Counted from the first letter of the stretch, positions 4,943 to 61,159 are shown. The stretch: 64,000 nucleotides of DNA from Candidatus Multivoradales bacterium (GCA_965248925.1 CBDFLE010000004.1:192001-256000), one strand, 5' to 3'. Notes: generated by a model from the letters alone, not told the origin. Made by a program: numbers and translations.

Positions 4943-5256
4943 TGGTAGATTTAGCGGATGAATTGAGGACTGTGCTGTATACGATTTTCTATGTTGAAGA
5001 CTTGTCAGCATTTCAGGGTTTGACCTCCTCTCAGAAGGAAGCATTTCTTCGTGACCATACCCTTGAAGAGTTGGGAAAAATGCGAGATGGTCTCCGGTGG
5101 GGAGTGGCCAATTCTGACTACAATTTCTCATCTCTCTGGGAGGGTCTTAGCTATACTGACCAGGAGATTCTGAGGTATGTAGAAATATTACTGAGGGATT
5201 TTGAAGAATTTGTGCCGAAGCTGTCCCGTCCGCCGCGTCCACAGCCAAAATTGTAG
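4942..5256 (+). CDS. Putative cognate immunity protein (104 aa, acidic, cytoplasmic)
   Basis: GTG overlaps the toxin stop; small, lower GC, directly after the RHS tip; C-terminus LSRPPRPQPKL is encoded by the boundary repeat. Confidence 0.75.
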   Translation: MVDLADELRTVLYTIFYVEDLSAFQGLTSSQKEAFLRDHTLEELGKMRDGLRWGVANSDYNFSSLWEGLSYTDQEILRYVEILLRDFEEFVPKLSRPPRPQPKL

Positions 5257-5357
5257 CCAAACGACCACTTTATTGGTCGCCGTCCCTCATTAGATGGTGT
5301 CCCGTCCGCCGCGTCCACAGTCAAAATTGTAGCCAAACGACCACTTTACTGGTCGCT
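5222..5357 (+). repeat. Unit-boundary direct repeat, two ~55-bp copies (5222, 5298)
   Basis: TGTCCCGTCCGCCGCGTCCACAG(C/T)CAAAATTGTAGCCAAACGACCACTTTA twice, 76 bp apart. Confidence 0.9.
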
Positions 5358-5524
5358 GGTCCTTGTCAATGGACCCGCTCCTTGTCGCTCCTCCTCAGCT
5401 CACGCCGAGAATCTGCCAAACCGACGGCGATCTTCGCTTGCTGCCGAGAATCCGAGGCGCCTGAGCGAGCCTCACCGTGGACAGCGCGTCGCAGCAGCCC
5501 ATCAACTCTCCAGCCTGAGCCGCT

Positions 5525-6439
5525 CTACTTGGGCGCATGGAAGCCAGAGAGCACTCCTTGCCAGGCGGTCATGAATCGTAGGTGCCCTCGTGAGGGCTGG
5601 CGGCCGGTCCAGATCTCTGCCGGTGTGTAGCCGTCGAGGTTCTGGTGCGGGCGCAGTTCGTTGTACCAAAACCGGAAGAAATCCAGCTGCCTCTGGGCCT
5701 TGCGGCCCGCTGGCAGCGGCTCGCGCCGCCGCCGCAAGCGCTCTTTGAAGGTGCCAAAGAATCGCTCGATGCGTCCGTTCTGCCACGGCGAGGCCACCTG
5801 AGTTCGCTGGTGGCGAATGCCGAGAAGAAAAAGTGAGAGCCGGAAGATCCAAGAGGTAAAAGTGGGTTCATTATCGGTGCGCAGACACCTTGGCTTGCCG
5901 CAAAGCTCAATCGCGTCGAGCAGCTGGCGTACCAGCTCGACTGAGGCTTTGGTCTTGACAACCTGAAGGCACAAGCAGAGCCGAGTGCCGTGATCCAGCA
6001 GGCCGAGAATCATCTCTTTCTTGCCGGAGGTGTTGTCGGCGTAGGTGAGATCGGCGGCCCAGATCAGCCGCTTGCCGATGATTCCAGGTTTTCTCCTGCG
6101 GATCTTCCGGCGCCAAGCGAGAATCTCCAGCTGGTGCTCGTTGAAGATCTTTGCAACGTAGCTCTTGCCCACCGTCATTCGGCGATGGCGGTAGTTGCGA
6201 TTGAAGGCTGCCGCGATCGCCCTACAGCCATCGTCGGGCTGCAACGCCTTGAGCCGGATCACCGCTTGGCGCACCCACTTGGGCTTGCGCCGGCAGAAGC
6301 CGCGATAAGTCGTTGGGTCGGGTGGACACTTGGCTCGGCGGCGGTGCTTCGCCCTGGGTTGCAGGGCGAGCGAAGTGAGCGCAAGAATCAGAAGCAACAC
6401 GAACGCCCAGAGCAGGGCGCCGGCAAGATCAGAAGTCAT
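5525..6439 (-). CDS. rve/DDE integrase-core transposase (IS3/IS481-like fold) with N-terminal hydrophobic helix, unit 1
   Basis: WAADLT, LRTDNE, SPWQNGRIERFFGTFKE (D,D,E); WYNELRPHQNLDGYTP integrase C-terminal motif; HTH-like region KWVRQAVIRLKAL...VGKSYVAKI. Confidence 0.88.
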   Translation of the reverse strand: MTSDLAGALLWAFVLLLILALTSLALQPRAKHRRRAKCPPDPTTYRGFCRRKPKWVRQAVIRLKALQPDDGCRAIAAAFNRNYRHRRMTVGKSYVAKIFNEHQLEILAWRRKIRRRKPGIIGKRLIWAADLTYADNTSGKKEMILGLLDHGTRLCLCLQVVKTKASVELVRQLLDAIELCGKPRCLRTDNEPTFTSWIFRLSLFLLGIRHQRTQVASPWQNGRIERFFGTFKERLRRRREPLPAGRKAQRQLDFFRFWYNELRPHQNLDGYTPAEIWTGRQPSRGHLRFMTAWQGVLSGFHAPK

Positions 6440-6489
6440 TCCTTGAGAATACCGATCTCACGCAGCCTAGCCCGAGGTGCCGCGCTGCC

Positions 6490-6572
6490 TCACGTATCAC
6501 CTCTCGAATGCCAGAAGCCCGGCTTGTGCAACTCCAGCACGAAGTCCACCTCGGCGGCCCTCGTCTCGTAGT
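6490..6572 (-). pseudogene. 3' remnant of the 155-aa hypothetical gene, disrupted by IS21 (5' stub at 9475-9486)
   Basis: Matches 28693-28775; matching resumes after the IS at the equivalent of 29149, so ~373 bp are missing. Confidence 0.8.
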
Positions 6573-6786
6573 TGCCTGCACCGACGGAATTCGACCACCG
6601 ATTCCGATTGAAAGTGACCAGTGATTCCAACGGAATCTGACCATCGATTCCGATCGAAAGTGACCACTTTTCCGGGTCGATCGGAATGGGTGGTCAGATT
6701 GGATCGGAATCCTGGCCACGGCGGAGTTCGACGGTAGCGCGCTCCTCACAATTGGGGTATTCCAGCCTCCTTGAAAGGAGGATTGG

Positions 6787-8361
6787 ATGCCGAGAGTGAG
6801 GACATCGATGCGCAAGATACGCGAGGTACTGAGACTGAAATGGCAGCATGGCCTGTCGCACCGCCAGATCGGACGGTCGGTTCGGCTGGGCCACGTGACG
6901 GTGTGCAACTACCTGCTGCGAGCCAAGGTTGAAGGCCTGAGCTGGGAGCAAGTAGCAGCTTTGAGCGACGCTGAGCTGGAGCAACGCCTGTACCCTCGGC
7001 CGCAGCCGCTTCGGAGGGGTGGTCAGCGAGCCTTGCCCGACTGGACCAAGGTGCATGGCGAGCTGAAGAAGAAGTGCGTAACCCTGTCGCTGCTGTGGCA
7101 GGAGTACCGGGAGGACCATCCTGACGGCTACGGTCTCAGCCGCTTCTGTCAGCTGTACCGGATCTGGGAAGGGCGCCTGGATGTGTGCCTGCGCCAAGCC
7201 TACCGGGCGGGCGAGAAGCTGTTCGTCGACTATGCCGGACAGACCGTGAGGGTGATCGACCCGGCGACTGGCAAAGAGCGCGAAGCGCAGATCTTCGTGG
7301 CGGTGCTGGGGGCGAGCAACTACACCTATGCCGAATCAACGTGGAGCCAGGGCCTGGAGGACTGGATCGGCTCTCATGTGCGGACCTTCGCGGCTCTGGG
7401 CGGGGTGAGCGAGCTGGTGGTGCCGGACAATCTGAAGAGCGGCGTGACCAGCCCGTGCCGCTACGAGCCGGAGATCAATCGCACCTACGCGGAGTTGGCC
7501 GAGCACTACGGCGTGGCGGTGGTGCCGGCGCGGGTGAGGAAGCCCCAAGACAAGGCGAAGGTCGAAAACGGTGTATTGCAAGTGGAGCGCTGGATTCTGG
7601 CCCGGCTGCGTAACCAGCAGTTCTTCAGCCTGCGAGAGCTCAACGAGAGCATCGCGAAGCTTCTGGTCGAGCTTAACGACCGTCCGCTGAAGGTGTTGGG
7701 CGTCTCGCGCCGAGCGCTGTTCGAGCAGGTCGATCGTCCTGCTCTGGGTGCTTTGCCGCTCCAGCCCTACGAGCTTGCCGAATGGAAGAAGGTACGCGTT
7801 GCCCCGGACTACCACGTCGAGTTCGAGGGCCACTATTACAGTGTGCCGTACCAGCTGATCAAGAAGCAGCTCGATCTGCGGGCGACGGCGCAACTGGTGG
7901 AGGTGCTCGATCGCGGCAAGCGTGTGGCTGCTCATCGTCGCAATCGGTGTCGGGGTCGGCACACGACCCAGAGCGAGCACATGCCCAAAGCGCACCAGGC
8001 GTACCTGGAGTGGACACCGACACGGCTGATCAGCTGGGCGGCGAAAACAGGCCAGGCGACGGCCGAACTGGTGGAGACCATCATGCTTAACCGCTCCCAT
8101 CCTCAGCACGGCTTTCGCTCGTGTCTGGGGCTGATGCGCCTGGGCAAGACCTATGGTGCCAATCGTTTGGAGGCTGCGTGCCGCCGCGCGCTCGCCATTC
8201 ACGGCCTGTCCTACAAGAGCGTGAAGTCGATCCTGAAGAGCGGCCTGGACCAGCAAGCAGCGCCCGAGCCCACCGAAGTGACGGCGCCGATCGAGCATCG
8301 CAACGTCCGCGGCGCCAGCTACTACAGTGCCGCGCGCCGCGAGGAGACGCCGCCATGCTGA
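6787..8361 (+). CDS. istA: IS21 transposase IstA
   Basis: MRKIREVLRLK HTH; LFVDYAG, VPDNLKSGV, KPQDKAKVENGV motifs; ends HRNVRGASYY. Confidence 0.95.
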   Translation: MPRVRTSMRKIREVLRLKWQHGLSHRQIGRSVRLGHVTVCNYLLRAKVEGLSWEQVAALSDAELEQRLYPRPQPLRRGGQRALPDWTKVHGELKKKCVTLSLLWQEYREDHPDGYGLSRFCQLYRIWEGRLDVCLRQAYRAGEKLFVDYAGQTVRVIDPATGKEREAQIFVAVLGASNYTYAESTWSQGLEDWIGSHVRTFAALGGVSELVVPDNLKSGVTSPCRYEPEINRTYAELAEHYGVAVVPARVRKPQDKAKVENGVLQVERWILARLRNQQFFSLRELNESIAKLLVELNDRPLKVLGVSRRALFEQVDRPALGALPLQPYELAEWKKVRVAPDYHVEFEGHYYSVPYQLIKKQLDLRATAQLVEVLDRGKRVAAHRRNRCRGRHTTQSEHMPKAHQAYLEWTPTRLISWAAKTGQATAELVETIMLNRSHPQHGFRSCLGLMRLGKTYGANRLEAACRRALAIHGLSYKSVKSILKSGLDQQAAPEPTEVTAPIEHRNVRGASYYSAARREETPPC

Positions 8362-9119
8362 GGCACGCGACGCTCGATCAACTCGCCGCGCTCAAGCTCC
8401 ACGGTATGGCCAAAGCCTTTGAGGAGCAGCTGTCGATGGTCGATGTCTCAGAGCTCTCCTTCGAAGAGCGCCTCGGGCTGCTGGTCGAGCGCGAAGCGAC
8501 CGAGCGATCCAGCCGCCGCTTGATAGCGCGGTTGCGAAAAGCCAAGCTGCGCGAGCAGGCGGCCATCGAAGACATCGACTGGCGAGCCAAGAGGGGCCTG
8601 GACAAAGGCCAGATCCTGCGCCTGGCCTCGTGCCAGTGGATCGCCGAGCATCTCAACGTGCTGATCACCGGCAAGGCCGGGGTGGGCAAGACCTTTCTCG
8701 CCTGCGCCTTCGCGCACAAGGCATGTCGGGAGGGTTACACCGCTTTGTACCTGCGGGTGCCGAGGCTGTTTCGCCAGTTCGCCATCGCGCGGGGTGATGG
8801 TAGCTACGAGAAGCTGCTCAAGAGCTATGCTCGCACAGACCTGCTCATCCTCGACGACTGGGGGCTGGCGCCGATCGGGGCCAGCGAGCGGCGCGACCTG
8901 CTCGAGATTCTTGAGGACCGCTACGGCAACCGCTCCACGCTGGTGACCTCCCAGCTACCGGTTGAGAGCTGGTACGAGGTCATCGGCGATCCGACCTTGG
9001 CCGACGCCATCCTCGATCGCATTGTCCACGGCGCCTACAAGCTCGCGGTGGACGGTGACTCCATGCGGGCGAAGAGAGCCGGCGGTATTCGCAAGGCCGC
9101 CCAGCGAGAGGCAAGGTGA
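8355..9119 (+). CDS. istB: IS21 helper AAA+ ATPase IstB
   Basis: ATG 8355 after GAGGAG, overlapping the istA stop; Walker A GKAGVGKT, Walker B LLILDDWG, TSQLP, ADAILDRIVH. Confidence 0.95.
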   Translation: MLRHATLDQLAALKLHGMAKAFEEQLSMVDVSELSFEERLGLLVEREATERSSRRLIARLRKAKLREQAAIEDIDWRAKRGLDKGQILRLASCQWIAEHLNVLITGKAGVGKTFLACAFAHKACREGYTALYLRVPRLFRQFAIARGDGSYEKLLKSYARTDLLILDDWGLAPIGASERRDLLEILEDRYGNRSTLVTSQLPVESWYEVIGDPTLADAILDRIVHGAYKLAVDGDSMRAKRAGGIRKAAQREAR

Positions 9120-9511
9120 GATCCAAGAGCATGCTGAAGCGATCGCCGATCCTGACCCATCAGCGGGCCTGCGGCCCGATCCGGACCCGACCCAAGATGG
9201 ACTGTGGAAGCTGCCGCGGTTGTGGAAATCGCTCTGCGATTCCCACAACCGCTTGGAAAACGCCCCCCTGCCCCCCAACCTGCGTTTCCCACAGCTACGC
9301 ACAGCCCCGACGACGGGTTATTTGAATACAATCAATCAAGAAGAAGAGCCGGAAGGAGGGCTCCAGCTACAGCGAAAGTGGACACTTACAACTGAGGAGA
9401 GCGCCAGCGTCGCTTCGCTCCGACAAGTGGTCGGTTTCGATCGGAATGGCTGGTCAGTTTCGTCGGAATAGGCACAGGGTGGCCATTCTGGTGCTCCTCC
9501 TCGGTGATCTA

Positions 9512-9664: not shown

Positions 9665-10027
9665 TCACGGTTCAAGAAAAAGCACCCACCGGGCAGAAGG
9701 GACCGGTCCTGCCCGGAGGGGAGTCGCCGTGGTTGGGGAGGGGCCACCACGGCCATCACAGGGACTCAGGGAGCGAGCGAGGTCGAAGTCCGCCGGCCGC
9801 AGACGGGCCGGCGCCACCGGCCCGATCCGTACCGAGACCCAGCGGCCGACTATCGCGGCTCTGGGTTCTAGGTTGGTGAGTTCACCGCGATAAAACACCC
9901 ACTCGACGAAGATCAGGGAATCGCGCCAAGAGTCAAAGAGATATTTGCGGGTGATCTTTTGTTGCCCCTTGATTTGTCGCCAAACGGGTAGGGCACTCAG
10001 GGCCTGTTGGATCTCTTCGTCGGTCAT
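9665..10027 (-). CDS. Pterin-4a-carbinolamine dehydratase (PCD/PhhB)-fold protein 1, degenerate
   Basis: MTDEEIQQALSALPVWRQ...ITRKYLFDSWRDSLIFV...WVSVRI...DFDLARSL follows the PCD pattern; LEP replaces the HHP catalytic motif; AAGGAGAG RBS. Confidence 0.65.
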   Translation of the reverse strand: MTDEEIQQALSALPVWRQIKGQQKITRKYLFDSWRDSLIFVEWVFYRGELTNLEPRAAIVGRWVSVRIGPVAPARLRPADFDLARSLSPCDGRGGPSPTTATPLRAGPVPSARWVLFLEP

Positions 10028-10309: not shown

Positions 10310-11647
10310 ATGTTTGGCGAATCAGCGAGCGAGCAGCACCAGCGATGCCTACAAACGCTGAAGGCCCATGTGCGACGGCATCCGATGTCGGTAAGGGAGA
10401 TCGAACGCCGCCTGGGATATTCTCCGTCCTACTTGCACCGGATCCTTCGTGGCAAAGTAGGGTTGTCGTTTGAGGGCTTGTTGCAGCTGCTCGAAGTGGT
10501 GGATATGAGCTTCGAGGAGCTGGCGATCAAGACGGCGCGAGTGGATGCCGAGGGATTGTTGGAGAGAGCCTTACCTCCGGGCACGGTAGATCCGCCAGAA
10601 ATTGAGCAGTTGTCGTTAGTAGCAACTCAGCTCATCGAAGGTGATCTTGTTAGAACAGCACCCGATTCAGCATGTCAGGCGCTATTTCAGGCGGTGAGTG
10701 AAGCTGATGAGCAGCGCTACTCGGACCCCTGGTTAGCCGCTGAAAAGGCGTGGTCAATCGCAGCTTATGTAGCGCCTAGAATAGCCGGCAGATCGGCGCT
10801 GGAACTCTGCTGTGGAGCGATCAGTGTTTACGGGTCTTGCTGCCGCATAGGTGGAAGCGTTCAGCAGGCGATCCGTACTCTGATCACGACCGGCCAACTC
10901 GCCCGGTCGTGCGGTCCGAGCCATCAGGCTAATTGGCTTCTTCGTTCTGCGTCGGCCTTGAATAGTCACGGTGAGCATGAGGCCGGGCTGGAACTTGCCC
11001 TGATAGCTGGGGAGATTTTTGAGACATCCGGCGACAGTGCGGGCATGGGCTCGGCCTTTATCAGCAAGGCGATTTCGATGACATTGCTGCCGGACATTGA
11101 GCGAGCAGAAGCGGCCTACCGCACAGCGCTTCTTCACATTCCGCCGGCTGGCCATTTGCGACTACTGTGTTCGGCGCATCACGGCGTCGCTAGGCTTCTG
11201 ATTGAGCGGGGGGAGTTGGGGCGGGCCAAATCACATCTTGAGCATGCTTCTTCGAAGCTTCCAGAGACGGACATCTACAGTCGAGGTATTTTGGCCCGGA
11301 CCTTGGGCTACTGGCATAGGAAAATGGGGCACAGGAAAGAAGCAATAGAGAATCTCAGTCTAGCGGCGAGCTGCCTTTCCAAGATCAACCCCTTCGACAT
11401 GGCTTTTGTTGTGCTCGACCAGATTGAGTTCTGTTTGGAAGATGGGCGACCCGAACAAGCGGTCAAGGCTGCCGAAGATACGTCCGACCTAATCGAGCTG
11501 TTCAAGTCCAATCCGGTCGCAGGTGGCATTCTCTTGAGGCTTCGAGACGCTGCCCAGAAGGGGCGGCTGACAGTGCGTCTGGTTGAGATTGCCCGGAAGA
11601 AGATGGCCGGCAGGCGGAGGTTCGGAATCCGCCCACCGGTTGCCTAG
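10310..11647 (+). CDS. XRE-type HTH + TPR transcriptional regulator, unit 1
   Basis: SVREIERRLGYSPSYLHRILRGKVGLS HTH followed by TPR-like helical repeats; GGAGG RBS. Confidence 0.8.
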   Translation: MFGESASEQHQRCLQTLKAHVRRHPMSVREIERRLGYSPSYLHRILRGKVGLSFEGLLQLLEVVDMSFEELAIKTARVDAEGLLERALPPGTVDPPEIEQLSLVATQLIEGDLVRTAPDSACQALFQAVSEADEQRYSDPWLAAEKAWSIAAYVAPRIAGRSALELCCGAISVYGSCCRIGGSVQQAIRTLITTGQLARSCGPSHQANWLLRSASALNSHGEHEAGLELALIAGEIFETSGDSAGMGSAFISKAISMTLLPDIERAEAAYRTALLHIPPAGHLRLLCSAHHGVARLLIERGELGRAKSHLEHASSKLPETDIYSRGILARTLGYWHRKMGHRKEAIENLSLAASCLSKINPFDMAFVVLDQIEFCLEDGRPEQAVKAAEDTSDLIELFKSNPVAGGILLRLRDAAQKGRLTVRLVEIARKKMAGRRRFGIRPPVA

Positions 11648-12048: not shown

Positions 12049-15000
12049 ATGTCGAAACAGCTATCTCTGCGCTCTCTCCTCGTCCTCCAAGCCTCTCTCG
12101 GTGCCCTCTTACTGTCGGTGAGCGCCGCGCAGGCGGCGCCGGTCTTTGTCTCGGTAACCCCCGCCGACGGCACTCTGTCGAGCGCCGCGACGGTGACTCT
12201 GACTATCGAAGTGCAGGCCGCGACCAGCTTGCAGGTGGATGGCCAAGCGGTCACCACGGTTGATCCCTCGGGGACGGTGTGGACCGCCGGTCCTTACTCG
12301 TTGAGCGAGGGGGAGCGGGTGTTGGTGTTGATCGCCGAGGACGCTTCTGGGGTGCAGGCTCAGCAGCTGCACCGGGTGGTGCGGGACTCGCTGCCGCCGG
12401 TGCTGAGCTTGAGCCAGCCGGCGGCGGGGGCGATCGTTGCCAGCTCGCCGCTGATCGTGGCCGGCACGGCGGTGGATGCGCATCTGGCGGCGGTGCGGGT
12501 GGGGGGTCAGGTGGCGGCTCTCAGTGGTGCGAGTTTTTCGCACTCTCTGGTCTTGGTGGAGGGCGAGCAGACGTTCACCGTGGAGGCGAGCGACAGCCTG
12601 GGGCAGAGCGGGCAGCAGAGTGTGACGGTGACTCTCGATAGCCAGCCGCCGACGGTGGCGCTGTTGGAGGGAGCTCAGCCGCTGGCGGCGGATGCGCTGT
12701 TCAATCGCTCGGTGGTGCTGAGCTTCAGCGTCACGGATGCGACGGCTACGACGGTCGAAGCGCTGCTCGACGGCGCTTCATTCACCTCCGGCACGACGGT
12801 GAGCGCGGCGGGTTCGCATGTGCTTTCAGTGACCGCCACCGACGCGGCTGGCCAGCCGACTAGCGTCAGCCGGAGCTTTGAGATCGACCTGACGGCGCCG
12901 ACTTTTCTCAGCTTCACGCCGAGCGATGGCACGCTCTTGGCAGACTCGCAGGTGACCCTCAGCGGGGTGGTGGAGGGTGCGGCCGCGCTGAGTGTCGAGG
13001 GGCAGGCGGCGAGCCTGGTGGGGCAGTCGTGGACGGCCGGGGCGTTGCAGCTGATCGAGGGGGAGCGGGAGATTTCTATCCTCGCTACTGATCTGGCGGG
13101 CAATAGCGCCTCGTTCACCTTGCATTTGGAGCGCGACGCGACGGCGCCGCAGCTGATCGGCCTGGTGCCCAGTGTGGACTCGGTTTTGGCGACCTCGCCG
13201 GTGGCGATCAGCGGCACCGCGAGTGACGCCCACTTGCTGGAGGTGCGGGTGGGGGGCGAGCTGGCGAGCCTGACGGGCTCGCAGTTCAGCCACCCGGCGG
13301 TAGTGCTGGTGGAAGGCGAGAATCTTCTGCCGATCGTTGCCACGGATCAGGTGGGCCATCAGGCGACGGCCGAGCTGCGGCTGGTGCTCGACACCCAAGC
13401 ACCGACACTGTCGGTGCTGGTGGCGGGGGTGCCGCTGCAGGGAGGCGCGGTGTTTGCCGGCCCGGTGACGCCTGAGATCTCGGCCAGCGATGCCACTGAA
13501 GTGGTGACGTCGGCGACTCTCGACGGTGCCACCTACTTGCCTGGCACGGTGATCGCTGGCGATGGCTTGCATCAGCTGTCGGTGAGCGCCAGCGACGCGG
13601 CGGGCCATCAGGCGACGGTGCTGGTGAGCTTCAGCCTCGACCTGGCGGCGCCGGTGTTCGCGGATCTGGCGCCGGTGGCTGGCAGTGTGGACAGCGCTGC
13701 TCAGGTGACGCTGACCGGCCGCGCGCCGGGGGCGGTGTCGGTGTCGGTGGACGGGCAAGCGGCGACGCTGGCGGGGGATGGCTTTAGCGCCGGTCCCTTC
13801 AATTTGAGCGAAGGGGAGCGGGTGTTCTTGCTCGCCGCCACCGATAGCGGCGGCAACGTCACCCAGCTGACCCACCGCCTGACCCGCGACTCGACGGCGC
13901 CGCAGCTCACCCTCGGCCAGCCGGCGGCCGGATCCCTGCTGGGGAGTACCACGGTCGATGTCAGCGGCACGGCGAGTGATCCGCGTCTTGATCAGGTGAC
14001 GGTCAATGGGGTGCTGGCCGAAATCAGTGGCGGCGCTTTCCTGGCCCGTCAGGTGGCGCTTATTGAAGGTGACAATGTGCTCACGGTGGTGGCGGCGGAC
14101 ACGGTGGGCAACGAGGTCCAAACGACCCGCTCGGTGACCGTTGATACGACGCCGCCGACGGTCGTCATCACCGACCCGGCCAGCGGCACGATCACCCCCG
14201 AGGCGGGGCTGACCCTGTCGGGCAGCGCCGCGGATCCTCATCTCGATCGGGTCGAGGTGGCGGGGGTGGGGGCGAGCTTGGCGGGTGGGCAATGGTCGTT
14301 GGCGGTGGATCTGCAAGAGGGCAGTAACACTTTCACCGTCGAAGCCTTCGACCCGCTCGGCCACAGCACCAGCGCTAGCGTGACGGTGACCCGCGACAGC
14401 TCGGCGCCTGAGATCCACATCGAGAGCCCGGCCGAGGGGCTTTACAGCCCAGCAGCGAATCTCACGGTCAGCGGCACGGTGGTCGCGGAGCCCGATTTGA
14501 CGGTGACGGTGGGCGGCGTGGCGGCGACGGTGGCGGGCAGTAGCTGGAGCGCCGCCGCGGTGCCGCTAGTAGAGGGTGAGAACCGGCTGATCGCAAGGGT
14601 GACCGACGCCCTGGGCAACCAAGGCACTCACACGCGGGTGGTGTGGCGCGACAACCAAGCGCCGGAGTTTCTATCGTCGATCCCCGCCGCGGGGGCTCTC
14701 GAGCTGCCGGCCGGCAGCAGCTTCCGGCTGCGCTTCAGCGAGCCGTTGGCGGCGCCCAGCGGGGGCGCCTACAGCCTCAGCACATTGGCTGGGCAAGCCC
14801 TGGCGAGCAGTGCCGAGATCGATGGCGACGACTTGGTGATCACCCCGCAGGCAGCACTGCCGTCGGCCACCGAGCTGCGCCTGGTGCTAGGGGCGGGGCT
14901 GGTCGATCGGGCGGGCAATGCTCTAGCGGCGGCTCATACTCTGGCTTTCACCGTGGTCGATGGCGGCTCCCCGGCGGCGCCGCAGCTCGACGCCTACGCT

Positions 15001-27433: not shown

Positions 27434-27442
27434 TTTCCTGTC

Positions 27443-28642: not shown

Positions 28643-28692
28643 TCCTTGAGAATACCGATCTCACGCAGCCTAGCCCGAGGTGCCGCGCTGCC

Positions 28693-29160: not shown

Positions 29161-29185
29161 TCTGGTGTTCCTCCTAGGTGATCTA

Positions 29186-47618: not shown

Positions 47619-47785
47619 TGCCTTCGTTGATGGACCCGCTCCTTGTCGCTCCTCTTCAGCTCACGCCGAGAATTTCCCAGACCGACGGCGATCTTCGCTA
47701 GCTGCCGAGAATCCGAGGCGCCTGAGCGAGCCTCACCGTGGACAGCGCGTCGCAGCAGCCCATCAACTCGCCAGCCTGAGCCGCT

Positions 47786-48699: not shown

Positions 48700-48749
48700 T
48701 CCTTGAGAATACAGATCTAACGCAGCCTAGCCAGAGGTGCCGCGCTTCC

Positions 48750-49217: not shown

Positions 49218-49239
49218 TCTGGTGCTCCTCCTCGGTAAT

Positions 49240-49378
49240 CTATTGTTGGCGGATATTGACGCCGAAGCCGATGGCCATGGTTTCGATGGCTTGGGCCAGG
49301 GCGATGTGTTGCTCGGTGAGTTCGGTCTCCGGAGCGCCTGGCAGCTTGAGGGTCAGCAAAGTGCCTCGTAGATGAATT
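49240..49378 (-). pseudogene. 5'-deleted PCD-like gene 2 remnant
   Basis: Matches ~29183-29319, then jumps to the equivalent of ~29502. Confidence 0.65.
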
Positions 49379-49386
49379 CCTTAAGG

Positions 49387-49752
49387 TCATGGTTCAAGAA
49401 AAAGCACCCTCCGGGCAGCAGGGACTGATTCTGCCCGGAGGGGTGGAGTTGCCGTGGTTGGGGAGGGACCACCACGGCCATCACAGGGACTCAGGGAGCG
49501 AGCGAGGTCGAAATCTTCCGGCCGCAGACGGGCCGGCGCCGCCGGCCCGATCCGTACCGAGACCCAGCGGCCGACCATCGCGGCTCTGGGTTCTAGGTTG
49601 GTGAGTTCACCGCGATAGAACACCCACTCGACGAAGATCAGGGAATCGCGCCAAGAGTCAAAGAGATATTTGCGGGTGATCTTTTGTTGCCCCTTGATTT
49701 GTCGCCAAACGGGTAGGGCACTCAGGGCCTGTTGGATCTCTTCGTCGGTCAT
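49387..49752 (-). CDS. PCD-fold protein 1, unit 3
   Basis: MTDEEIQQALS start after AAGGAGAG; paralog of 9665 and 29510. Confidence 0.65.
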   Translation of the reverse strand: MTDEEIQQALSALPVWRQIKGQQKITRKYLFDSWRDSLIFVEWVFYRGELTNLEPRAAMVGRWVSVRIGPAAPARLRPEDFDLARSLSPCDGRGGPSPTTATPPLRAESVPAARRVLFLEP

Positions 49753-50033
49753 CGCTCTCTCCTTGGGTCTAGGAGATCGTAGGTCCAATGTGTCAGATCT
49801 GCGCAAACAGTCCGGGCTTCGCTATAGCCTGAAGCGGGGCACCTGAGAATCCCTCCTTTCTGGTCTGCTTGGGTGTTAAAGAACTCGGTTTCGGACAATA
49901 GGCGCGCACTGTGCTGACATGGGTGCTGATTCTCGTGCAGCTTTGATGTTTTTCGCGCCAAAATCTCGGCGAAAGCTCTGCGTGGGCTATACTTTGCTCC
50001 TGAGCCAACTATCTGGAGGGGTGTATGTCAGAA

Positions 50034-52647: not shown

Positions 52648-52783
52648 CCCTCCGGAGAAATCAGCATCCCGTAGCTCATTTGGTTTTCACGAGATTTAGT
52701 TTTCATCAGTGACCTCCTTCGCAACGAGCCAAGAGTCGCTGAATTGCTCTTCTTGGTCCGAAGTCCCGCCCAAACTATATCGA

Positions 52784-55700
52784 CGCAGCTCGGCGATCAG
52801 CTGGTGCTGGCGATCTCGGCCAAGCTCACTCCGGGCCAGCCGCTGCGCCTCGACTTCTCAGAAGCCTTGCAAGAAGAGGCGCCAGGTATCCGGGTCGAGC
52901 ACGACGGGATGGCGCTGCCGATCACCAAAGAGCCTCTGGGCAGCTGGGCACAGCTGCGGATCCATGGCGGCTGGCAGGCTGGCAAGACCTACAACTTGCG
53001 CCTGGACTCCACCATGGCCGACGCCGCCGGCTTGCCTTGGGATACTGACCTGACTCTGCCTTTCGAAGTCGCCGAATCGAGCGCCGGCACTAGCTTCGCG
53101 CTCGACGCGGCGCACGACATCGCGCGCCTCGGCTCGTTGCTCTTCGTGGCCGCCGGCGCCGATGGCCTGGCGGTGCTCGACGCCAGCGACCCGCGCCAGC
53201 TGAAGAACTGGCTGGCGGCTGAGACCTACGTCGATCTGGTCTCGGAGCCAGGTCTACCGGTGCGCGGGGTGGCGACCGACAGCCATGGCCGGGTGGTGGC
53301 AGTAGGGGGTGGCGTCGCCCGCCGGGGGGTGCTGCTGATCCTCGATCCGCAAGAGCTGCCCCAGGGTGCCGCGACGGTGCCCGCGGCGGCGATTCTCGGC
53401 CGCACCCTCCTCACCGAGCCCCAGCTGGCTGGCTCGGGTGCCCCGCCGCTGCTCATCGGGCGGCCGCTGGCGGTCGAGATCTTCAACCGCGATGAGAGCA
53501 CGAGCTGGACGGTGGGGGAGGTGGTGCCGCCGGGCCTCACCCTGGCTCCGCCCAGCCCACCGAGCGGCACGGCGGCTGTCTCGCTCACCGTCAGTGGCAT
53601 GGCGACGGCGGAGCGTCCGGTGACTCTGCGCAACCTCACCACCGGCGAGCGCGACAGCGCTCGCGTCGGCAGTGCTGGTGGCGGCGGTGCTGGCAGTTTC
53701 TCCCTGAGTCTCAGCGTGCGGCGCGGCGACCGCCTGGAGCTACTGCGCAACGAGCTGTCCTTGGCCTACGTGGCGGGTTACGACGCCGGGGTGGTGACGG
53801 TGGATCTGAACGCCGTCGAAGCGGCCGATGAGGAAGTCGACGATCCTTGGGATGCCTTCGATCTGCTGCGCTACAACACTCACTATTTTGTACCGACCGA
53901 GGTGCTGTGCTCGACGTTTGAGAACGATCAGCGCTTCGACGTGATCGACGCGCGGGTGCTGCCGGCGGCGTCGGAGGGCGAGCCTTGGAGCGTGCTGGCC
54001 CTGGTCGAGAATTATGGCTTGCTGTCGCTGGGTGCCTCGGTCGCTGCGCCGCTGGACAAGCTGGCCTACCGCGACGCTCTCTGCGGCGAGGTCGACGGCA
54101 ACCGCAAGCTGGGGGGTCTCGATGTGCTGCCCGGCTACCGCTTCGACCGCAACGGCGACGGTGTGCTGGACGACACTGAGCCCGAGCGTGACTACGCGCT
54201 GCTCACCAACACCGTCGGTGGCGGCGGTCTTGGCTGGCTGCTGATCGTCGATGTCACCAAGCGCGATGAGCTGCTTCTTGTGGGCCGCATCGAGCTGCCC
54301 GGCCCAGCGACGCGGGTGACTGCTGACCCGGTCGGCCGCCGCGCCCTGGTCTCAGGCCTCGGTGGCGGGGTCTACATCGTCGACCTCGACCGCTGGCCCG
54401 AGCTGGGTGGCGGCGGCGGAACCCCTCAGATCTGGTCGAGCGATCGGGTGGTCGAGCGCTTGAGCTTTGGCGAGGACGTGCGCGCCCCCACCTTGGTGGC
54501 GCCGGAGCTGGGCCTGGCCTTCGCCGGTGGCGTTGCCCGCGGCGTGACCCCCATCAGCACCGGCCTGCCGCGCCTGTCGCTGGTGACCAGCGGCCAGCAG
54601 GGACTGCGTCGGGTCGCCCGGCTGGCGCCATTTGGCGCGCCTACCGCGCCGGAGAGTGCCGAGGAGGGAGCGGAAGAAATACCCGGCGTGATCCGCGTGC
54701 AGGCGCAGCTTCCTGGTGGCCTGGCCGATGCCGAGGGCAAGATCCGTGTCGACCTCGCGGGCATCGGCCCCGCCGGTTTGCCGGTGCGCGGCCTCGGCGA
54801 GGGGCTGATGGACGAGCCCATGGCCGAGCTGAAAGACGATAAGGCGCTGGTGCTACAACGGCAGTCGGACAACCCCCTGTCAGAGGGCTACAACGTCTTC
54901 CTCTCCGACCCGGTGGTGCTGCTGGCTGACGTGCGCGCCTCGGCGCATTTCGAGCGCTCGGAGGCTGAGAAGAAGGTCTGCCGCCGCTGCGACCTGGTGG
55001 ACGAGGGGGTCTACTCCGCGGCCGATCTACCTCCCAACGAGCTGCATGTCGAGCTGCTGTCGGGTCACCAGGTCCGCGCCAGCTACAGCGCCAGCTTCGC
55101 CACCAGCCTCAGCGGGCTTTACAACGCCGATCTGCTAGCGGGCTACGCCGTCATCGCCGACAGTGTGCCCTGGGATCTCAGCCCCTCGCCGCACCAGGAG
55201 CCGGTGCTCAATGCCGCCACTAGCGCGATGGCGGCGCCGGGCACCCTCCTGCACTCAGGAGAGATGACCCGCCAGGCGATCGACCTCAGCCTCCAAGGCC
55301 GGGGTTTAGATGTGGCCTTGGTGCGCACCTACCGCAGCCAAACGATCAGCAACGGCCCCCTCGGCCCGGGCTGGGATCATGGCTACCGCCTGCGCTTGCG
55401 GCTCTTGCCCAATGGCGATATCGACTTCTTCGACGGCACTGGCCGCCGCGAGACCTTCACCTTGGAAGACGACCGCGAGCTGAAGCCGCCAGCCGGCCGT
55501 TTCGTCCAGCTCAAGAAGTACGCCGAGGGCTACACCCTGATCGGCAGCGGCTACCAGCGCTGGCGTTTCGATCGCTGGGGTCGTTTAGTGTCGATGATCG
55601 ACTCGGTGCGCACCAGCGAAGAGACCGGCAACGAGATCACCTTCCACTACGACTCCCACTCGCGCCTGGCGCGAATCCACGACGATCTCGACCGCAACAC

Positions 55701-58700
55701 CTTCCTGCACTACGACGAAGGCCGCCTGGAGAAGATCGTCGACTTCAGTGATCGCGACTTCCTCTACCACTACGACGCCCAGGGAAGATTGACCAGTTTC
55801 GAGACTCCAGTCGTCGACCTCGGCAGCGGCAGCAGCCAGCGCCTGTCGACCACCTACGCCTACCACGCCGCCGGCACCGGCCTGGCTGGCCAGCTCAGCC
55901 AACGCGATGATCTGAAAAGCGAGACCGACGCCAAGAGCCAGACCTGGCTCACCCTGCGGTATCAGGACTCCGACGGCAACGGCCGCCCCGATGCGCTCAA
56001 AGAACAAGACTGGGGAGCGGGGACAGTGCATTTGGCCTTCGATTTCGACGGCCAGCAGACCACCCTGACCGATCGGCGGGGCAAAGTCTGGACCTACCAT
56101 CTCAACGCCGCTGGGCAGATGCTCAGCGAGCGCGACCCGGCGTCTCATCAGTCGAACTGGTCCTACGAGCCGAGTGGTGCATTGGCACAGGCCACCGAGG
56201 CGGGGGGAATCACCACCGGTCTGACCTACGGCTCGGACTCTCCGCGCCAGCGGGGCAATGTGTCGAGCGTGACGACGACGCCTTCCCCTGGCCACCCCAA
56301 CCCCGTCTCGCCGGTGGTGGTGCAGGTGCTAGAGAGGGTTAAGAAAACCAATCGGGTGGCCAGTTGGAACGATAAGCACGGTGCTCAGCACCTGATCATT
56401 TCCTATCCCAACGAGCTGCCCAAGGTGCGTCAAGACGCCTATGGCACACCGCTCAACGCCACCTCGTCGATGAAGTACGACCTTTTCGGTCGGATCACCG
56501 AGCAGATTGCCCCCAACCAGAGCGTCACCAGTTTTACCTACGGCGAGGATGGCTACCTGACTCAGGTGGTCGCCGACGCCCAGAACCTGGCTCTGAGCAC
56601 CGACTTTCTGGCGCGCGACGCCCGTGGCAATCCGCTGCGCTGGCGCGACCCGCGCGGGGTGATCCACGAAGCTGAGTACAACGCCCTTGGCTGGCTGCTG
56701 CGTCAGCGGCAAGCGATCTCGGGCGGCGGCGCCCCGATCGACCTGGTGAGTGAATTCGACTACGACGCCAACGGTCAGGTCACGGAGACCCGCCTCTCCT
56801 ACAGTGGCGGCGGGATGACCGCGACTCGCTTCACTTACGGAATTCTCGGCGAGCTACTGCGCAGCGAGCGCGAGGTCGAGACCGGCGGGGTGGCGATCCT
56901 CGAGACCGTAGCGTACGACTCCCATCTCAACCCGACTCGCATCGTCGATGGTGTCGGTGGGGTCACCTTGCTGCAGTACGACGCCCGCAGCCTACCGCTC
57001 CGCAAGACCAGCGGGGCGGGTACGGCGGCGGAGATCTCAGAGGAGTACTACTACGACGCCGACGGCCGGCTGGTGGTCTACACCGATGCTCGCCAACAAG
57101 TTTGGCGTACTGAGTACGACGGCTTGGGACGCCCCGCGGCGCAGATCAATCCGCTGGGAGAGCGCACCGAGACCGAGTACACCCCAGGTAACCTGCCAAT
57201 CCGCAAACGCCGCTTGAGTGCCTCGGGCGTCTTGAAGAGCGAGCAGCAATGGCAGTGGGACGTGCGTGCTCGGCAGACCCGCGGATTTGCTCATCTGTGG
57301 GCCTACGGCGAGGGTGGCGGCGATGGCGAAGCTCATCAGCAGCTGACGACAGAGTTAACTTACGATGCCATCTCGAATCTGCTCACCGTCGAGGGTCCTG
57401 GCATCTCGTTGGAGCATCGCTACGACTCGGCGGGGCGGCGGACCTTCTCGCAAGACCAGGCCGGCAACATCGTCGAGCTGGACCTCGACCCGCTAGGTCT
57501 GGTCACCACCCAACGCCACATCGAGCAGCTCGCCGAGGGGGGCACCGCGACCGTCGAGAACACCTTCACCCACGACGCTTTGGGCCGTCCGCTGAGCGAG
57601 AGTCTGCCGCACGGTGGCAGCCGCAGCTGGCAATATGACGTCCGTGGCAACCTGACTCGTTTTGCCGACGCCGACGGCCGCGTCTGGACCTGGCAATACG
57701 ACGGCCTCGACCGCCGGCTCGCCGAGCAGGCTCCGGGAGGTGTTGACCTCAGCCACACCTATGACCAGGCTTCGCGGCCGCTGACCTACACCGACGCTCT
57801 CGGTAACCAGACCCGCTGGGTCTACGACATTCTGGGTCGGCGCACCGACTGGCTGCTCAACGGCGTCGGAGTAGAGATCTACGGCCACGACGAGAGCGGC
57901 AACCCAACCTCCATCCTGCGCGCCGACGGCAGCCGCATCGACCAGAGTTTCGATGCCGCCGGCCGGCTGATCAGCCGCCAGATCAACCTCCCTGACGGCA
58001 CCCTGGGCGAGGCCGAGAGCTACTCCCATGACGCCCTGGGCGGATCACTCAGCAAACCGCGGGCGGCATCTCCACCCAGCACAGCTTCGACTCGTTGTCG
58101 CGGCTGACCGCCGAGACCACCGCTGATCTCACCGTCGGTTACCAGCACGATGCCGCCGGCAACCTGATTCAGATCAGCTACCCCTCGGGTCGCCGGGTCG
58201 ACATCGTGCCCGACGGGCTCAATCGCCCCTCCACGGTCGCCTGGGCGGCGCCCGGCCCGCCCGAAGTCAAGGTGCGCTACGGCTATCGCGGCGGCAATCT
58301 GATGTCCTCCCGCAGCCTGGCCCAGCTCACCGGGGTGAAGACTTTTGATGCCGGCCGGCGCACCGCCGGCTGGCAAGTCCAGGATGCTGGCAACCAGTTG
58401 CTGCTCGGCGAAAGCCTGACCTGGACCCCCGGCTCGCGGCTGGCCACCGCCACCCGCACCGATTTGGGTGGCCTCACCCGTCGTTACGGCTACCAGGACG
58501 GTCGCTTGATCTCGGCCATCCAGACTGGCGGCCCGGCCTCCAGCGCCCCGGCCGCCACCGGCTGGGCCGACGTGCCCGCGAGCTTCACCTACAGCTACGA
58601 CCGAGCCCAGAATCTGCTGGGGATGGACTTCGCACAAAGCTGCGCAGCCACCCAGGTCGCCCTGCCGCTGGATGGCAGCGGCTGGAACCGCCCGGCTTCA

Positions 58701-60872
58701 GTAGCCGGCGAAGCGCTCCAGTGGACCCCACGCCAGGAGCTGGCGAGCAAAGGAAATCTCAACTTCACTTACAGCTGGGACCACCGTCCCATCGAACTTC
58801 GGCGCAATGGGGTGACGATCGCCAGCTACAAATACGACTCCCAAGGTCGCCGAGTCGAGCGCCAAGTCGGCGCCGACACCTACACCACCGTCTGGTCCGG
58901 CTGGCAGCCGATCGAAGAATACAAAAACGGTCTATTGCACAGCCGCCGCACCTACGGCGTTGGCCTCGACGAACTTATTCGCCTCGAAAGCGACCTCGAC
59001 GGCGACGGTGTTCTAGAGCAAGAATACCTGCCCTTCTACGACACGATCGGCAACCTCGTCCTACTCACCAACGAAGCCGGCAAGCCCATCGAACGCTATG
59101 CCTACGGCCCCTATGGCCGGCAGTGGATCGTCGCCGACTCGACAGCGCCGGTAGTCGAGCAGATCCGCATGAAAAGTGACGAGCTGTGGATCGAGTTTTC
59201 CGAAGAAGTGCGTCTCGATCGCCTGCAAGCCGTCGCCAGCGCCGGCACGCTGACGCTAGTCAACGCCCTCGGCGATGAGATCAGCTTGCAGATCGAGCAG
59301 CCCGTCGACAACGGCCGCGCCGCCCGGCGGCGCGTGGTGCTGAGCGAGGCGCCGAGCCAGAATCCCCCACGCTGGCCAGCGGCGGGCGAGACTGCCACCC
59401 TGACTATCCCAGCCGGAGCCCTGGTCGACCTCTTCGAAAACAAAGGCGCGGCCGTGGCCGAAGCTATGACCTGGCCGGCCACCGCGGACGAGATCCACAG
59501 CGACACAGCCCCTCCCCAGCTGCTCCACGCTTGCGTCACACCGCAGAGAAAAGTCGAGCTGGAATTCAGCGAGCCCCTCGACGAAGCGACCCTCGACACC
59601 ATCCAGCTCAACAGCGCAGCAACCACCTGGACCGTCTCGGCCGATGGCTATCGCCTGACCAGCGGCGCCCTCGCGGTCGGCTCCAACACCCTGCTGGTAG
59701 ACGGCGAACTGAAAGACCTCGCCGGCACCTCTCTAGCCGGCACCGTGAGCGAGAGCTTCATCGTCAGCCAGGGTCAGGGCACGATCATCCACAGCGCCCC
59801 CTACGCCGGGCAGATCACTGCCTCGGCTACCGGTAACCCGTTTGGCTTCAAAGGCTTGCCGAGAGACCCGGAGAGTGGGCTGATCTATGTCAGGCACCGC
59901 TACTACGATCCAGAAATAGGCCGGTGGATCACCTCCGATCCACTGGGACTCGTCGATGGGTCGAACCGCTACCAGTTTGCCCTGAATGATCCGACTAACA
60001 ACAGCGATCCCACCGGGGAGTTTGTGGTTGTTGGTTCGATCCTGATCGCAGCGGCGATCTACGGGGCTACTCACGAGATCGAACGAGCTACAGACCTTGA
60101 TCCGTATGCAAGCGTCGGCGGTGCGGCGACCTTGGGAGCAGGGAAGGGTCTGGTGGTTGGTGGTCTTGCCCTAGCCTCGGGAGGATTTGGTGGAGGACTA
60201 GCTGCTGGGCTTGGGGGTGGTGCAGTTACCCAGGGTGCTACGGCGGGTGTCTTTGCGGGTGTTGGTGGCGTCTTTGCGGAGGATGTGATCGATGTTGGGG
60301 TGCTGCATCATCGGGAGAGCTTCAGCTCTATCGGGCGGTATGCTGGGGCAGCGGCGATTGGTGGTGTTGGTGGGGCGGTTCTGGGGCGGATTGGCCAAGC
60401 CGGGACTCGGGCAAATAGACTAGCGCTCCAGGGGCGTGTCCAAGGTCGATTACGGTCGGCAAGCACGCCGCGAATCAACTTAGCTCCCAAGATTCGGTAT
60501 CACTACGCCCCGGAAAGAACTATTTCTGCCATTAGAGCATCGAGAGTTCTCAAAGCAGCAGATCTGGGCGCTCCTCTGGTCAGCACTCCGAAAGCATGGG
60601 TTACTCCAATTGCTCCAGCACGACTCGCTGGCCCCTTTGGGTGGCTACACCGGTTGCGCTTGGGCTTTAGCCCAACTCCGAGAATCCCAACCCCTCATTT
60701 GAGATCTGGTAAGTTTGTCATGCAGGCTGAAGATTCCTATATTGCTATTGATGTTAGTGGACTCCAGCTTACTCGTGCGCCAGTTTGGAAAGCGCCGCTT
60801 GGAGGGCAACAATACATCGTTGGAGATATTTCCCTGCGAACCCGACTTCTTCACTCTGGAGGAATCCGATAG
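52784..60872 (+). pseudogene. 5'-truncated, frameshifted giant RHS toxin, unit 3 (barrel type A; HYD1-like ADP-ribosyltransferase tip)
   Basis: Homology starts abruptly at QLGDQLVLA (~2340 codons including the signal peptide missing); GGG at 58038-58040 versus GGGG in unit 0 splits it into ORFs 52744-58107 and 58095-60872. Confidence 0.85.
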
Positions 60873-61127
60873 GTGTATTCTCAGATTGCAGTAGTTTTTT
60901 TGGTGGGTCTAGTCCTGGGCGTTTTGCAATCGCTGTTGGTTGGTATCCGCATCGGCACCTGGGACGGTGGAACTGGTTGTCTCTGGGGACTCTTGGTTGG
61001 GATTGCGTCAGGACTGTGTGCGATCTGGATTGGTTGGTGGGGCAATGCTGTCGCAGTGTTGATGTCTTTGGTGTGTTTCATCGGTGCCGAAGTGTGGATT
61101 AGGAAGAACGGCGCGCCCCGCATGTAG
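60873..61127 (+). CDS. Putative immunity protein (84 aa, ~3 TM helices)
   Basis: GTG directly after the toxin stop; strongly hydrophobic. Confidence 0.65.
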   Translation: MYSQIAVVFLVGLVLGVLQSLLVGIRIGTWDGGTGCLWGLLVGIASGLCAIWIGWWGNAVAVLMSLVCFIGAEVWIRKNGAPRM

Positions 61128-61141
61128 TGTCTTGCCTGCCG

Positions 61142-61159
61142 TGTCCCGTCCGCCGCGTC
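61142..61159 (+). repeat. Terminal 18-bp copy of the unit-boundary motif
   Basis: TGTCCCGTCCGCCGCGTC, identical to 5222-5239; unrelated sequence follows. Confidence 0.85.

Follow-up and report, generated by a model that had tools for sequence, protein, structure and literature searches.

The 64,000-nucleotide stretch analysed here (the window; C4:192001-256000 of the genome of Candidatus Multivoradales bacterium) holds part of a tandem array of very large Rhs toxin genes that are interspersed with copies of a compact integrase of the rve, or DDE, type. The host is a soil-type member of the Acidobacteriota, whose assembly comprises 7.98 Mb in 6 contigs; coordinates are window positions unless prefixed with C4, C5 or C6. 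Our subject is this integrase together with a conserved DNA end that lies behind it, the two making up an insertion sequence (IS)-like element of ~1.2 kb, which we rate as an element of the translocatable-unit type that is specialised for polymorphic toxin loci. Unit 0 denotes the tail of an upstream unit at the start of the window, and units 1 to 3 follow it.

Architecture of the array

An earlier interpretation made without database searches (hereafter the sequence-only reading) had described a gene order that repeats through the window, namely a short motif, the integrase, a 155-aa gene, two genes called PCD2 and PCD1 and then, divergently, an HTH-TPR regulator, an Rhs gene and an immunity gene. 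Self-BLAST confirms this order, with units that have been degraded by IS21 and IS4-like insertions, deletions and a frameshift. The segment 9555-26305 aligns with 29400-46171 at 95.6% identity and an offset of 19845, the integrase block recurs at 5298-6572, 27501-29323 and 47560-49379 with 91-92% identity, and 1-4400 matches 55971-60366 at 95% identity. The regulators of units 1 and 2 start at 10310 and 30156, which reproduces the period of 19846 bp that had been given for them, and the repeated unit does consist, as had been proposed, of whole Rhs genes with their regulators and a DDE integrase. Within the window the unit backbones are 91-98% identical, and divergence begins past the motif that ends the Rhs core.

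The observation was thus real, and it was also understated, as the window is the middle of a ~210-kb array with 13 Rhs tips (the variable C-terminal parts of the toxins). Recurring Rhs backbone segments and integrase blocks begin at C4:133194, fill the rest of that contig and continue to ~C5:64082; because the terminal 5.95 kb of C4 and the initial 5.95 kb of C5 are the same at 99.93% identity, the two contigs abut, and the length of the array follows from this junction and the extent of the recurrence. Six of the tips are carried by genes of ~5000 aa, among them a gene that falls into two frames, four by genes of ~2500-2700 aa, and three are orphans that start inside the core. Elsewhere in the array the Rhs backbones reach 99.6% identity between units, and a 9.7-kb segment, which includes one exact tip duplicate, is present twice at 99.65% identity. 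The devotion of ~2.6% of an 8-Mb genome to 13 toxin tips represents an extreme outcome.

Four short-read runs of one sample gave contigs that match 46142-47589 (tip 2, its immunity open reading frame (ORF) and the right end (RE) of the next element) with 0 differences in 4/4 runs, and 60307-61933 with 0 differences in 3/4 runs; these contigs are not independent support, since the runs may derive from the sample behind the assembly itself. Two read joints were considered as traces of excision and rejected, the joint 46171->47560 because both joined sequences are common to all units, and a "go-back" joint at 47589/47560 because it matches the stacked ends found in other units.

The features of the window are listed below, with coordinates, strand and, in parentheses, the basis of each assignment; the last line gives orphan tips that lie outside the window.

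2-4942, +: Rhs gene of unit 0, 3' 1646 codons including the C-terminal tip (RHS_repeat E 8e-62; ORF map; 95% identity to 55971-60366); the whole gene, of 2492 aa, is C4:189464-196942
4942-5256, +: putative immunity ORF 0, 104 aa, overlapping at its end with the first partial RE copy (position only)
5222-5297, +: partial RE copy of 76 nt, stacked outside the full RE (motif scan and junction listing)
5298-6572, -: IS-like element of unit 1, with RE tip at 5298 and intact integrase at 5525-6439 (rve, rve_3; protein 95% identical to the unit-2 copy)
6573-9473, +: IS21-family insertion, with istA at 6787-8361 and istB at 8121-9119, in place of most of the 155-aa gene (Mu-transpos_C_2/rve; IstB_IS21 E 2e-75; homology break)
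9665-10027, -: PCD1 of unit 1, pterin-4a-carbinolamine dehydratase-like (inside the 95.6% block; Pfam match made on the unit-2 copy)
10310-11647, +: HTH-TPR regulator of unit 1 (gene 85.9% identical in nucleotides to its unit-2 counterpart)
12049-26976, +: Rhs gene 1, 4975 aa (signal peptide, Ig-like, Glucodextran_B, DUF6531, RHS repeats, unique tip)
26795-27433, +: putative immunity ORF 1 (position only; no family match)
27442-27500, +: two partial RE copies of 13 and 45 nt, both tip-first (junction listing)
27501-28700, -: IS-like element of unit 2, with RE tip at 27501 and integrase of 304 aa at 27728-28642; left boundary approximate (rve)
28693-29160, -: p155, the 155-aa gene, of unit 2 (AphA_like, weak, E 0.008; paralogues of ~40% identity elsewhere in this genome)
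29186-29491, -: PCD2, a diverged PCD-like ORF of 101 aa (Pterin_4a, full-length but weak, E 1.4e-4, 22.4 bits vs cut-off 26); in units 1 and 3 it has in-frame deletions of 171 and 177 bp
29510-29872, -: PCD1 of unit 2 (Pterin_4a E 6.7e-10)
30156-31499, +: HTH-TPR regulator of unit 2 (HTH_31 and TPR)
31597-46941, +: Rhs gene 2, 5114 aa (DPLGL motif at the core end, followed by a unique tip with HELGH motif)
46902-47525, +: putative immunity ORF 2 (position only; junction backed by the contig spanning 46142-47589)
47559-48930, -: IS-like element of unit 3, with RE tip at 47559/47560 and integrase frameshifted near codon 113 (rve and rve_3; two matches in different frames)
48750-49217, -: p155 of unit 3 (ORF list; inside the 91.4% block matching unit 2)
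49387-49806, -: PCD1 of unit 3 (Pterin_4a E 4e-10)
50034-51307, -: IS4-like insertion, with DUF4372 + DDE_Tnp_1 transposase at 50047-51204 (Pfam)
51268-52647, +: HTH-TPR regulator of unit 3, diverged (39% identity to the unit-2 regulator; HTH_31)
52744-60872, +: Rhs gene 3, of the short type; its two frames, 52744-58107 and 58095-60872, overlap (RHS_repeat, DUF6531)
60785-61127, +: putative immunity ORF(s) 3 (position only)
61142-61160, +: RE stump of 19 nt, then unrelated DNA (contig 60307-61933 matches with 0 differences)
C4:266986-269061, C4:260157-263510 and C5:62648-64051: orphan tips with core fragments (ORF maps and backbone comparison)

The Rhs genes and their tips

The Rhs proteins of the window match RHS_repeat at E values of 2.5e-62, 8e-62 and 2e-54, which shows that the RHS/YD repeats of the toxin shell are present, and those of 4975-5114 aa combine a Sec signal peptide with Ig-like, Glucodextran_B and DUF6531 domains and RHS repeats. 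When the four tips of the window are aligned, they are conserved up to ...SDP(M/L)G(Y/L)VDG...DP(L/T)G and unrelated beyond it, apart from ~140 residues that the tips of units 0 and 3 have in common before they diverge; the claim that each unit carries a different toxin tip is therefore upheld. Through the whole array the tips are likewise unrelated past the core end except for the exact duplicate, one pair at 65% identity (with immunity ORFs that are 53% identical) and two pairs that are alike in their first part only. None of the four window tips has a Pfam match, and the four immunity ORFs, which match neither Pfam nor NCBIfam, are assigned by position. In the tip of Rhs 2 (45949-46938) a HELGH motif, of the HExxH type, stands opposite HEELGH of the Rhs 1 tip in the alignment, which hints at a candidate metallopeptidase-like toxin. 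The orphan at C5:62648-64051 is a 3' fragment of the core behind a partial integrase block, with an ORF at C5:62691-64082.

A conserved right end

The motif TGTCCCGTCCGCGGCGTCC, with up to 3 mismatches, occurs at six sites in the window (5222, 5298, 27456, 27501, 47559 and 61142), all on the + strand, vs 0.10 expected, and none of 100 shuffles reached six (0/100). Genome-wide there are 29 matches on the + strand and 0 on the - strand; two of the 29, with 3 mismatches and at distant places on C6, probably represent chance. The sequence-only reading had seen in this motif the boundary of a 20-kb transposon, a view that has to be given up, as the motif is the precise RE, TGTCCCGTCCGC..., of the ~1.2-kb IS-like element. 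In this genome the RE tip lies ~230 nt past the stop codon of the integrase, always in the same orientation. All 14 listed junctions that have a unique flank fall exactly at TGTCCCGTCC, and the DNA outside differs each time. One to four partial RE copies, which are tip-first and reach 3-76 nt inward (in one case 495 nt), often adjoin the full copy on its outer side. In two units that are otherwise 99.65% identical, the same tip DNA has been joined to the RE at points 153 bp apart, and one of these alternative junctions truncates a putative immunity ORF: the RE tip interrupts the C5 copy of immunity ORF 0, otherwise identical, 153 bp sooner. Another RE tip, at C4:265414, truncates a further transposase ORF. 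The exact tip, the varied flanks, the stacked partial copies and the alternative junctions argue that the RE is the terminus of a mobile element and not a site shared by both sides of a cassette.

The same end is found far beyond this genome. Across phyla, from Acidobacteriota to Proteobacteria, the element ends in ...GCGGACNNGCGGACGGGACA-3' (~20 nt), and when copies are compared within genomes, the common block measures ~1.0-1.25 kb: it starts ~60-70 bp before the start codon and stops sharply at ...GCGGACGGGACA, which is the window motif in reverse complement. Allowing up to 2 mismatches, 62/69 loci have a 12-mer of the RE at 163-344 nt beyond the integrase match, as compared to 0/69 for its reverse complement in the same interval, 5/64 upstream and 1/45 in a far interval; the exact 12-mer is present in 33/99 loci. 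Stacked partial ends are seen in Nitrincola as well. No conserved k-mer was found in 73 upstream regions, the predicted fold of the RE region is no better than that of shuffles (z -0.95), and promoter and terminator scans of that region remain at the shuffle level.

The integrase and its family

The integrase has 304 aa and an rve + rve_3 DDE core, in which D130, D189 and E225 are invariant or nearly so. Its best NCBIfam matches, IS481 (NF033577; 107.8 bits vs a cut-off of 224) and IS3 (NF033516; 92.7 vs 160), lie below threshold, as does DDE_Tnp_IS240, of the IS6 type (23.4-26.9 bits vs 27), the rve_3 match being stronger at ~60 bits. Public sources call the protein only "integrase core domain-containing protein" or "transposase InsO family". 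An AlphaFold model (predicted local distance difference test, pLDDT, 83.5) consists of a helical N-terminal domain, an RNase-H-like core and a small C-terminal beta domain, and its best matches in the PDB are retroviral intasomes (E 1.5e-10) and TnsB. Residues 3-25 form a confidently modelled hydrophobic helix, followed by a low-confidence linker and a helical domain of DNA-binding-like appearance, an arrangement that is unusual for a transposase; the Nitrincola copies also begin with a hydrophobic stretch.

The ratio of nonsynonymous to synonymous divergence (dN/dS) is ~0.19 among nine intact copies of the array, where dS reaches 0.28, and 0.16-0.22 among three copies from Nitrincola. The integrase thus appears to be a working gene under purifying selection, and it is predicted to be catalytically active.

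A pattern scan of a species collection yielded 491 confirmed loci of the family, the best 79 of which were kept for detail. Its hosts include Acidobacteriota, Gamma- and Betaproteobacteria, Nitrospirota, Fibrobacterota and others, and within genomes its copies are few and clustered as opposed to scattered. A quick IQ-TREE tree, with the Shimodaira-Hasegawa-like approximate likelihood ratio test (SH-aLRT) as its sole support measure and with 7/79 loci omitted (a stop codon or <230 residues in the integrase match), has branches that largely follow host phyla, and the toxin-linked members are scattered over it. Among 72,556 plasmid records there is one family member, which is convergent with a 38.8-kb gene for a "tandem-95 repeat protein" and faces its 3' end.

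Association with Rhs and CdiA toxins

All 14 integrase copies of this genome (14/14) follow an Rhs tip, including two degenerate ones in a second, unrelated Rhs array. The element is convergent with each pair of tip and immunity gene in the array, its RE being turned towards the immunity gene. Among relatives from the same family or order, with integrases of 45-56% identity, Rhs core fragments are present in 7/8 fetched loci, and in one contig three integrases alternate with 5'-truncated Rhs fragments. In the 79 loci as a whole, tblastn finds Rhs or CdiA in 26, with the toxin always on the strand opposite to the integrase; this count excludes three "CdiA" artefacts, produced by one query, that are antisense to the integrase (L041, L079 and L083) and is a rough lower figure, because L078 was missed despite a Fil_haemagg_2 domain beside its integrase. 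On the RE side, Rhs or CdiA is found in 18/45 loci with at least 2.5 kb of flank. The largest convergent ORF matches RHS_repeat in 12/46 loci and Fil_haemagg_2 in 2/46, and the left side gives 3/41 and 3/41. Seven large convergent ORFs that carry no Rhs or CdiA label comprise one weak RHS_repeat match, one Ig/LamG surface protein, one UvrC and four without a match.

Clean arrays outside the Acidobacteriota are found on two chromosomes. In a Nitrincola sp., 4/4 copies alternate with orphan cdiA fragments (bearing Fil_haemagg_2, DUF637 and Tox-REase-7) behind a full-length cdiA, and this array of 21.6 kb is the sole Fil_haemagg_2 locus of a 4.8-Mb genome. A Pseudoduganella sp. has an array of the same layout, with three full-length and one partial integrase matches inside the sole such locus, and in addition a degenerate copy ~10 kb beyond the last RHS_repeat match of a giant Rhs frame that lies on the strand opposite to it. 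An SpvB-TcdB_midN-RHS gene is present at a further locus. On its left side the element adjoins 5'-truncated toxin fragments of varied length, such as an Rhs core that begins at residue 646 or 835, or cdiA fragments of 766-1325 aa.

The search for co-occurrence in other genomes that the sequence-only reading had called for therefore has a divided outcome: the link of the integrase to Rhs and to the motif is borne out and extends to CdiA and to other phyla, and no such link emerges for p155, PCD and HTH-TPR.

How the array may have been built

We take the IS-like element to be the recombination module of the array, with translocatable-unit-like circles and homologous recombination together building arrays of this kind, and would give this reading a probability of roughly 0.55. 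The integrase acting at the RE, or host recombination between direct copies, would release a circle that consists of one element and the adjacent toxin DNA, namely a tip, an immunity gene and part of the toxin body. The circle would re-enter by a single crossover with the conserved body of an rhs or cdiA gene, or next to an element already in place, and re-entry would put the new tip on the expressed gene with the element behind it, while the old tip would be pushed downstream behind a copy of the integrase. The cargo is, in most relatives, a toxin fragment that lacks its 5' part and keeps a tip and an immunity gene; here it would have grown to a whole ~20-kb Rhs operon with regulator genes, with further copies arising via homologous recombination between units. 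The variable left truncation of the fragments is what a circle with a variable second breakpoint predicts. Homologous recombination between units clearly contributes as well, because two orphans in this genome share one deletion junction and must have been copied after a single deletion had formed it. The sequence-only reading had contrasted the array with the short orphan tip modules of other Rhs loci, a contrast that does not survive the comparison with relatives, in which the usual cargo is the classical orphan tip; as that cargo is usually an orphan 5'-truncated rhs or cdiA fragment with an immunity gene, the whole-gene array is best regarded as a special case of the same system.

Several findings weigh against this reading. 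Three of the 14 copies in this genome are frameshifted or degenerate, and fewer than half of the family loci show Rhs or CdiA by our crude tests; many flanks hold housekeeping genes, which are counter-examples to toxin linkage, and Ca. Ferrigenium straubiae has two intact copies in a genome with no RHS_repeat or Fil_haemagg_2 match. No inverted partner of the RE rises above background in the window, in this genome, in Nitrincola or in the 300 nt upstream of the start codon at 73 loci, and with no second end found, a standard pathway of DDE transposition cannot be drawn up for it. The integrases that follow the identical tips of one unit pair differ at a dS of 0.25, so that tip and integrase have not always travelled together. 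The 95-99.6% identity of the backbones and the shared orphan junction are explained by RecA-type duplication alone, and no circle, excision product or variant in array length was seen in the short-read contigs of one sample, which are unable to show them. The backbone identity also fits plain homologous duplication, and the earlier idea of a self-mobilising element finds support in part.

A more specific form of the proposal is that a dedicated, one-ended family of DDE integrases, persisting within lineages, serves polymorphic toxin loci and makes or inserts the circular tip cassettes that the displacement of Rhs and CdiA C-termini has been supposed to require since 2009; it would work at its single conserved DNA end in a way other than standard two-ended transposition, with the stacked ends as footprints of its action. 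We offer this as a tentative suggestion that we ourselves consider rather doubtful.

Of the other explanations, the one that fares best has a passenger IS that landed behind an Rhs operon, after which the ~20-kb unit was amplified by unequal recombination and tips were swapped by double crossovers between the core and the IS, the integrase serving as a homology arm only. Units that are 91-99.6% identical over 10-17 kb, the deletion junction shared by two orphans, the decoupled histories of integrase and tip in one unit pair and the 3/14 broken copies are all as expected from such a history. However, it leaves unexplained why members of one family, alike in end and orientation, occur behind Rhs and CdiA tips in other phyla, why array copies are under purifying selection in two phyla, and how the nucleotide-exact junctions, the 153-bp alternative junction and the stacked tips came about, and we judge it to be unlikely.

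The view originally taken of the window, that the motif bounds the whole ~20-kb unit and that this unit is a single self-mobilising element which accumulates like integron cassettes, is less probable again. The full unit is indeed what repeats here, every unit of the array lies between two motif copies, and a translocatable unit between neighbouring elements would have this very content. Against this, the element that is conserved across the family is only ~1.2 kb long; p155, PCD and HTH-TPR are not found beside family members elsewhere, and their paralogues elsewhere in this genome have no integrase match; and the immunity-side boundary has no conserved sequence. The likeness to integrons is only partly supported and fails in the strict sense, as the enzyme is an rve DDE protein, neither a tyrosine recombinase nor an attC-like site was found here, and there is a one-sided end in place of an imperfect palindrome for each cassette.

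Finally, that a smaller locus was inflated by repeat mis-assembly is very improbable: C4 does end inside an Rhs gene and overlap C5 by 5.95 kb, a 9.7-kb segment does occur twice at 99.65%, and the long-range order of the units is tentative, but the units differ by 2-9% and have unrelated tips, they carry unit-specific IS21 and IS4-like insertions and deletions, unique junction contigs are present in the short-read runs (though perhaps from the assembly's own sample), and relatives show the same architecture.

Neighbouring genes and other features

Paralogues of p155, PCD1 and HTH-TPR (27-47% identity) are found at C6:4661696-4664304, C6:3277579-3280078, C6:2414577-2416138, C6:4912126-4913130 and C5:1076682-1077687, often in the same divergent layout and at none of the places with integrase matches. 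A stretch of 43 bp between p155 and PCD is conserved at five paralogue sites. It appears that these genes constitute a general regulatory module of this genome.

The second Rhs array is of another class (~25% identity to the main one) and is situated near two contig ends, at C5:2322943-2355317 and C6:5203504-5214741. Its integrase is 85-87% identical to that of the main array, and the adjoining p155 paralogue 40%.

Behind the RE stump of unit 3 (61257-64000, then continuing to C4:265414) the array holds ~12 kb of DNA unrelated to it. It contains an HTH_3 repressor-like gene, an ORF of 286 aa and a primase of 1029 aa with a DnaG-type zinc ribbon and Toprim, followed by an Rhs 3' fragment, of which 2.9 kb is 100% identical to part of a C5 unit, and it ends in a truncated rve transposase ORF that is cut by the next RE tip (C4:265414). 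This stretch looks like a mobile-element remnant that was captured in the array.

At C4:133194-147377 and C5:16044-21020, giant ORFs of 4727 and 1658 aa lie immediately before two Rhs genes, at a distance of 19 nt and on the same strand, possibly representing longer N-terminal extensions that were split off by a stop codon. In Rhs gene 3, short-read contigs have one more base than the assembly after 58037, just upstream of the frame change, and three more after 55711; the contigs with the extra bases differ at 6-10 other places and may come from a paralogous unit. The IS4-like element is multi-copy in the sample, with loose ends at 50033/50034 and 51307/51308 and high depth between them.

Significance

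Rhs and CdiA toxins diversify through the exchange of their C-terminal tips, and how these are excised, carried and inserted has, to our knowledge, never been settled. The compact 304-aa DDE integrase is a concrete candidate for the enzyme that moves them, the RE of ~20 nt, which is recognisable from Acidobacteriota to Proteobacteria, provides a defined DNA substrate, and clean arrays are available on the chromosomes of cultured, fully sequenced hosts in Nitrincola and Pseudoduganella. With a candidate enzyme, its substrate and cultured hosts at hand, the question of tip exchange therefore becomes testable at the bench. The integrase and its end motif also provide a simple marker for toxin/immunity cassettes that lack known domain families.

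In a literature search, which covered few subscription journals and left ISfinder outside, no publication turned up with a name for this family, nor with its conserved single end, its rule of orientation or its occurrence in both Rhs and CdiA arrays; an IS name for it may exist. By term search, Zhang et al. 2012, Poole et al. 2011 and Jamet and Nassif 2015 contain no relevant passage on an integrase or transposase.

Comparison with known systems

The integron, to which the array had been likened, differs from it in the enzyme, here an rve DDE protein as opposed to the tyrosine recombinase IntI, and in the cassettes, which here are not flanked by attC.

The ends of IS481 and IS3 elements read ...CA-3'. 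The present element is like them in having a single rve/rve_3 DDE core, in its best NCBIfam matches and in its ...CA-3' end, and it differs in scores that fall below the cut-offs, in having no terminal inverted repeat that we could find and in copies that are few and clustered. Unlike IS3, it has a single ORF with no orfA/frameshift arrangement, and ~70 bp of shared sequence precede the start codon.

In the Rhs loci of E. coli, H-rpt, of the ISAs1 family, is habitually found downstream of the Rhs core extensions and has a transposase of the DDE_Tnp_1 type; we know of no conserved single-end or orientation rule for it. H-rpt thus resembles the element described here in being an IS-like element downstream of Rhs genes and differs from it in transposase family.

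The translocatable unit of IS26 is a circle of one IS and adjacent DNA that re-inserts beside resident copies or by homology with them. Comparable in its arrangement, all copies of the present element share one orientation relative to the toxin genes, as direct copies interleaved with cargo. For toxin genes themselves, Ocasio and Cotter 2019 (PMC6350997) describes an IS2-like transposase that generates a circle from a single IS and contact-dependent inhibition (CDI) genes, and the insertion of this circle beside a resident IS; this "megacircle" carries the bcpAIOB CDI genes of Burkholderia thailandensis. The likeness to both systems lies in direct copies of a DDE element that alternate with cargo, in polymorphic toxins as that cargo and in the proposal of a circle. 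The differences lie in the sub-threshold IS6-type and IS3 scores, the one conserved end, the lack of inverted repeats and the presence of this one integrase family behind giant toxin genes in several phyla, and the circle proposed here is so far inferred only.

The closest comparison is with the displacement of Rhs C-terminal tips. Jackson et al. 2009 (PMC2935791) proposed episomal circles of a core fragment and a tip, asked how these come about and stated that no integrase was then known to accompany Rhs; a 2016 paper (PMC4927057) is cited alongside it for C-terminal displacement and arrays of orphan tips. The present array shares with these loci the core-end motif, the unrelated tips, the small downstream ORFs and the orphan 5'-truncated fragments, and its architecture fits the model of a circle that enters by a single crossover. 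What sets it apart is that here whole 15-kb genes are repeated with their regulators, and that a specific integrase with a conserved end punctuates the array.

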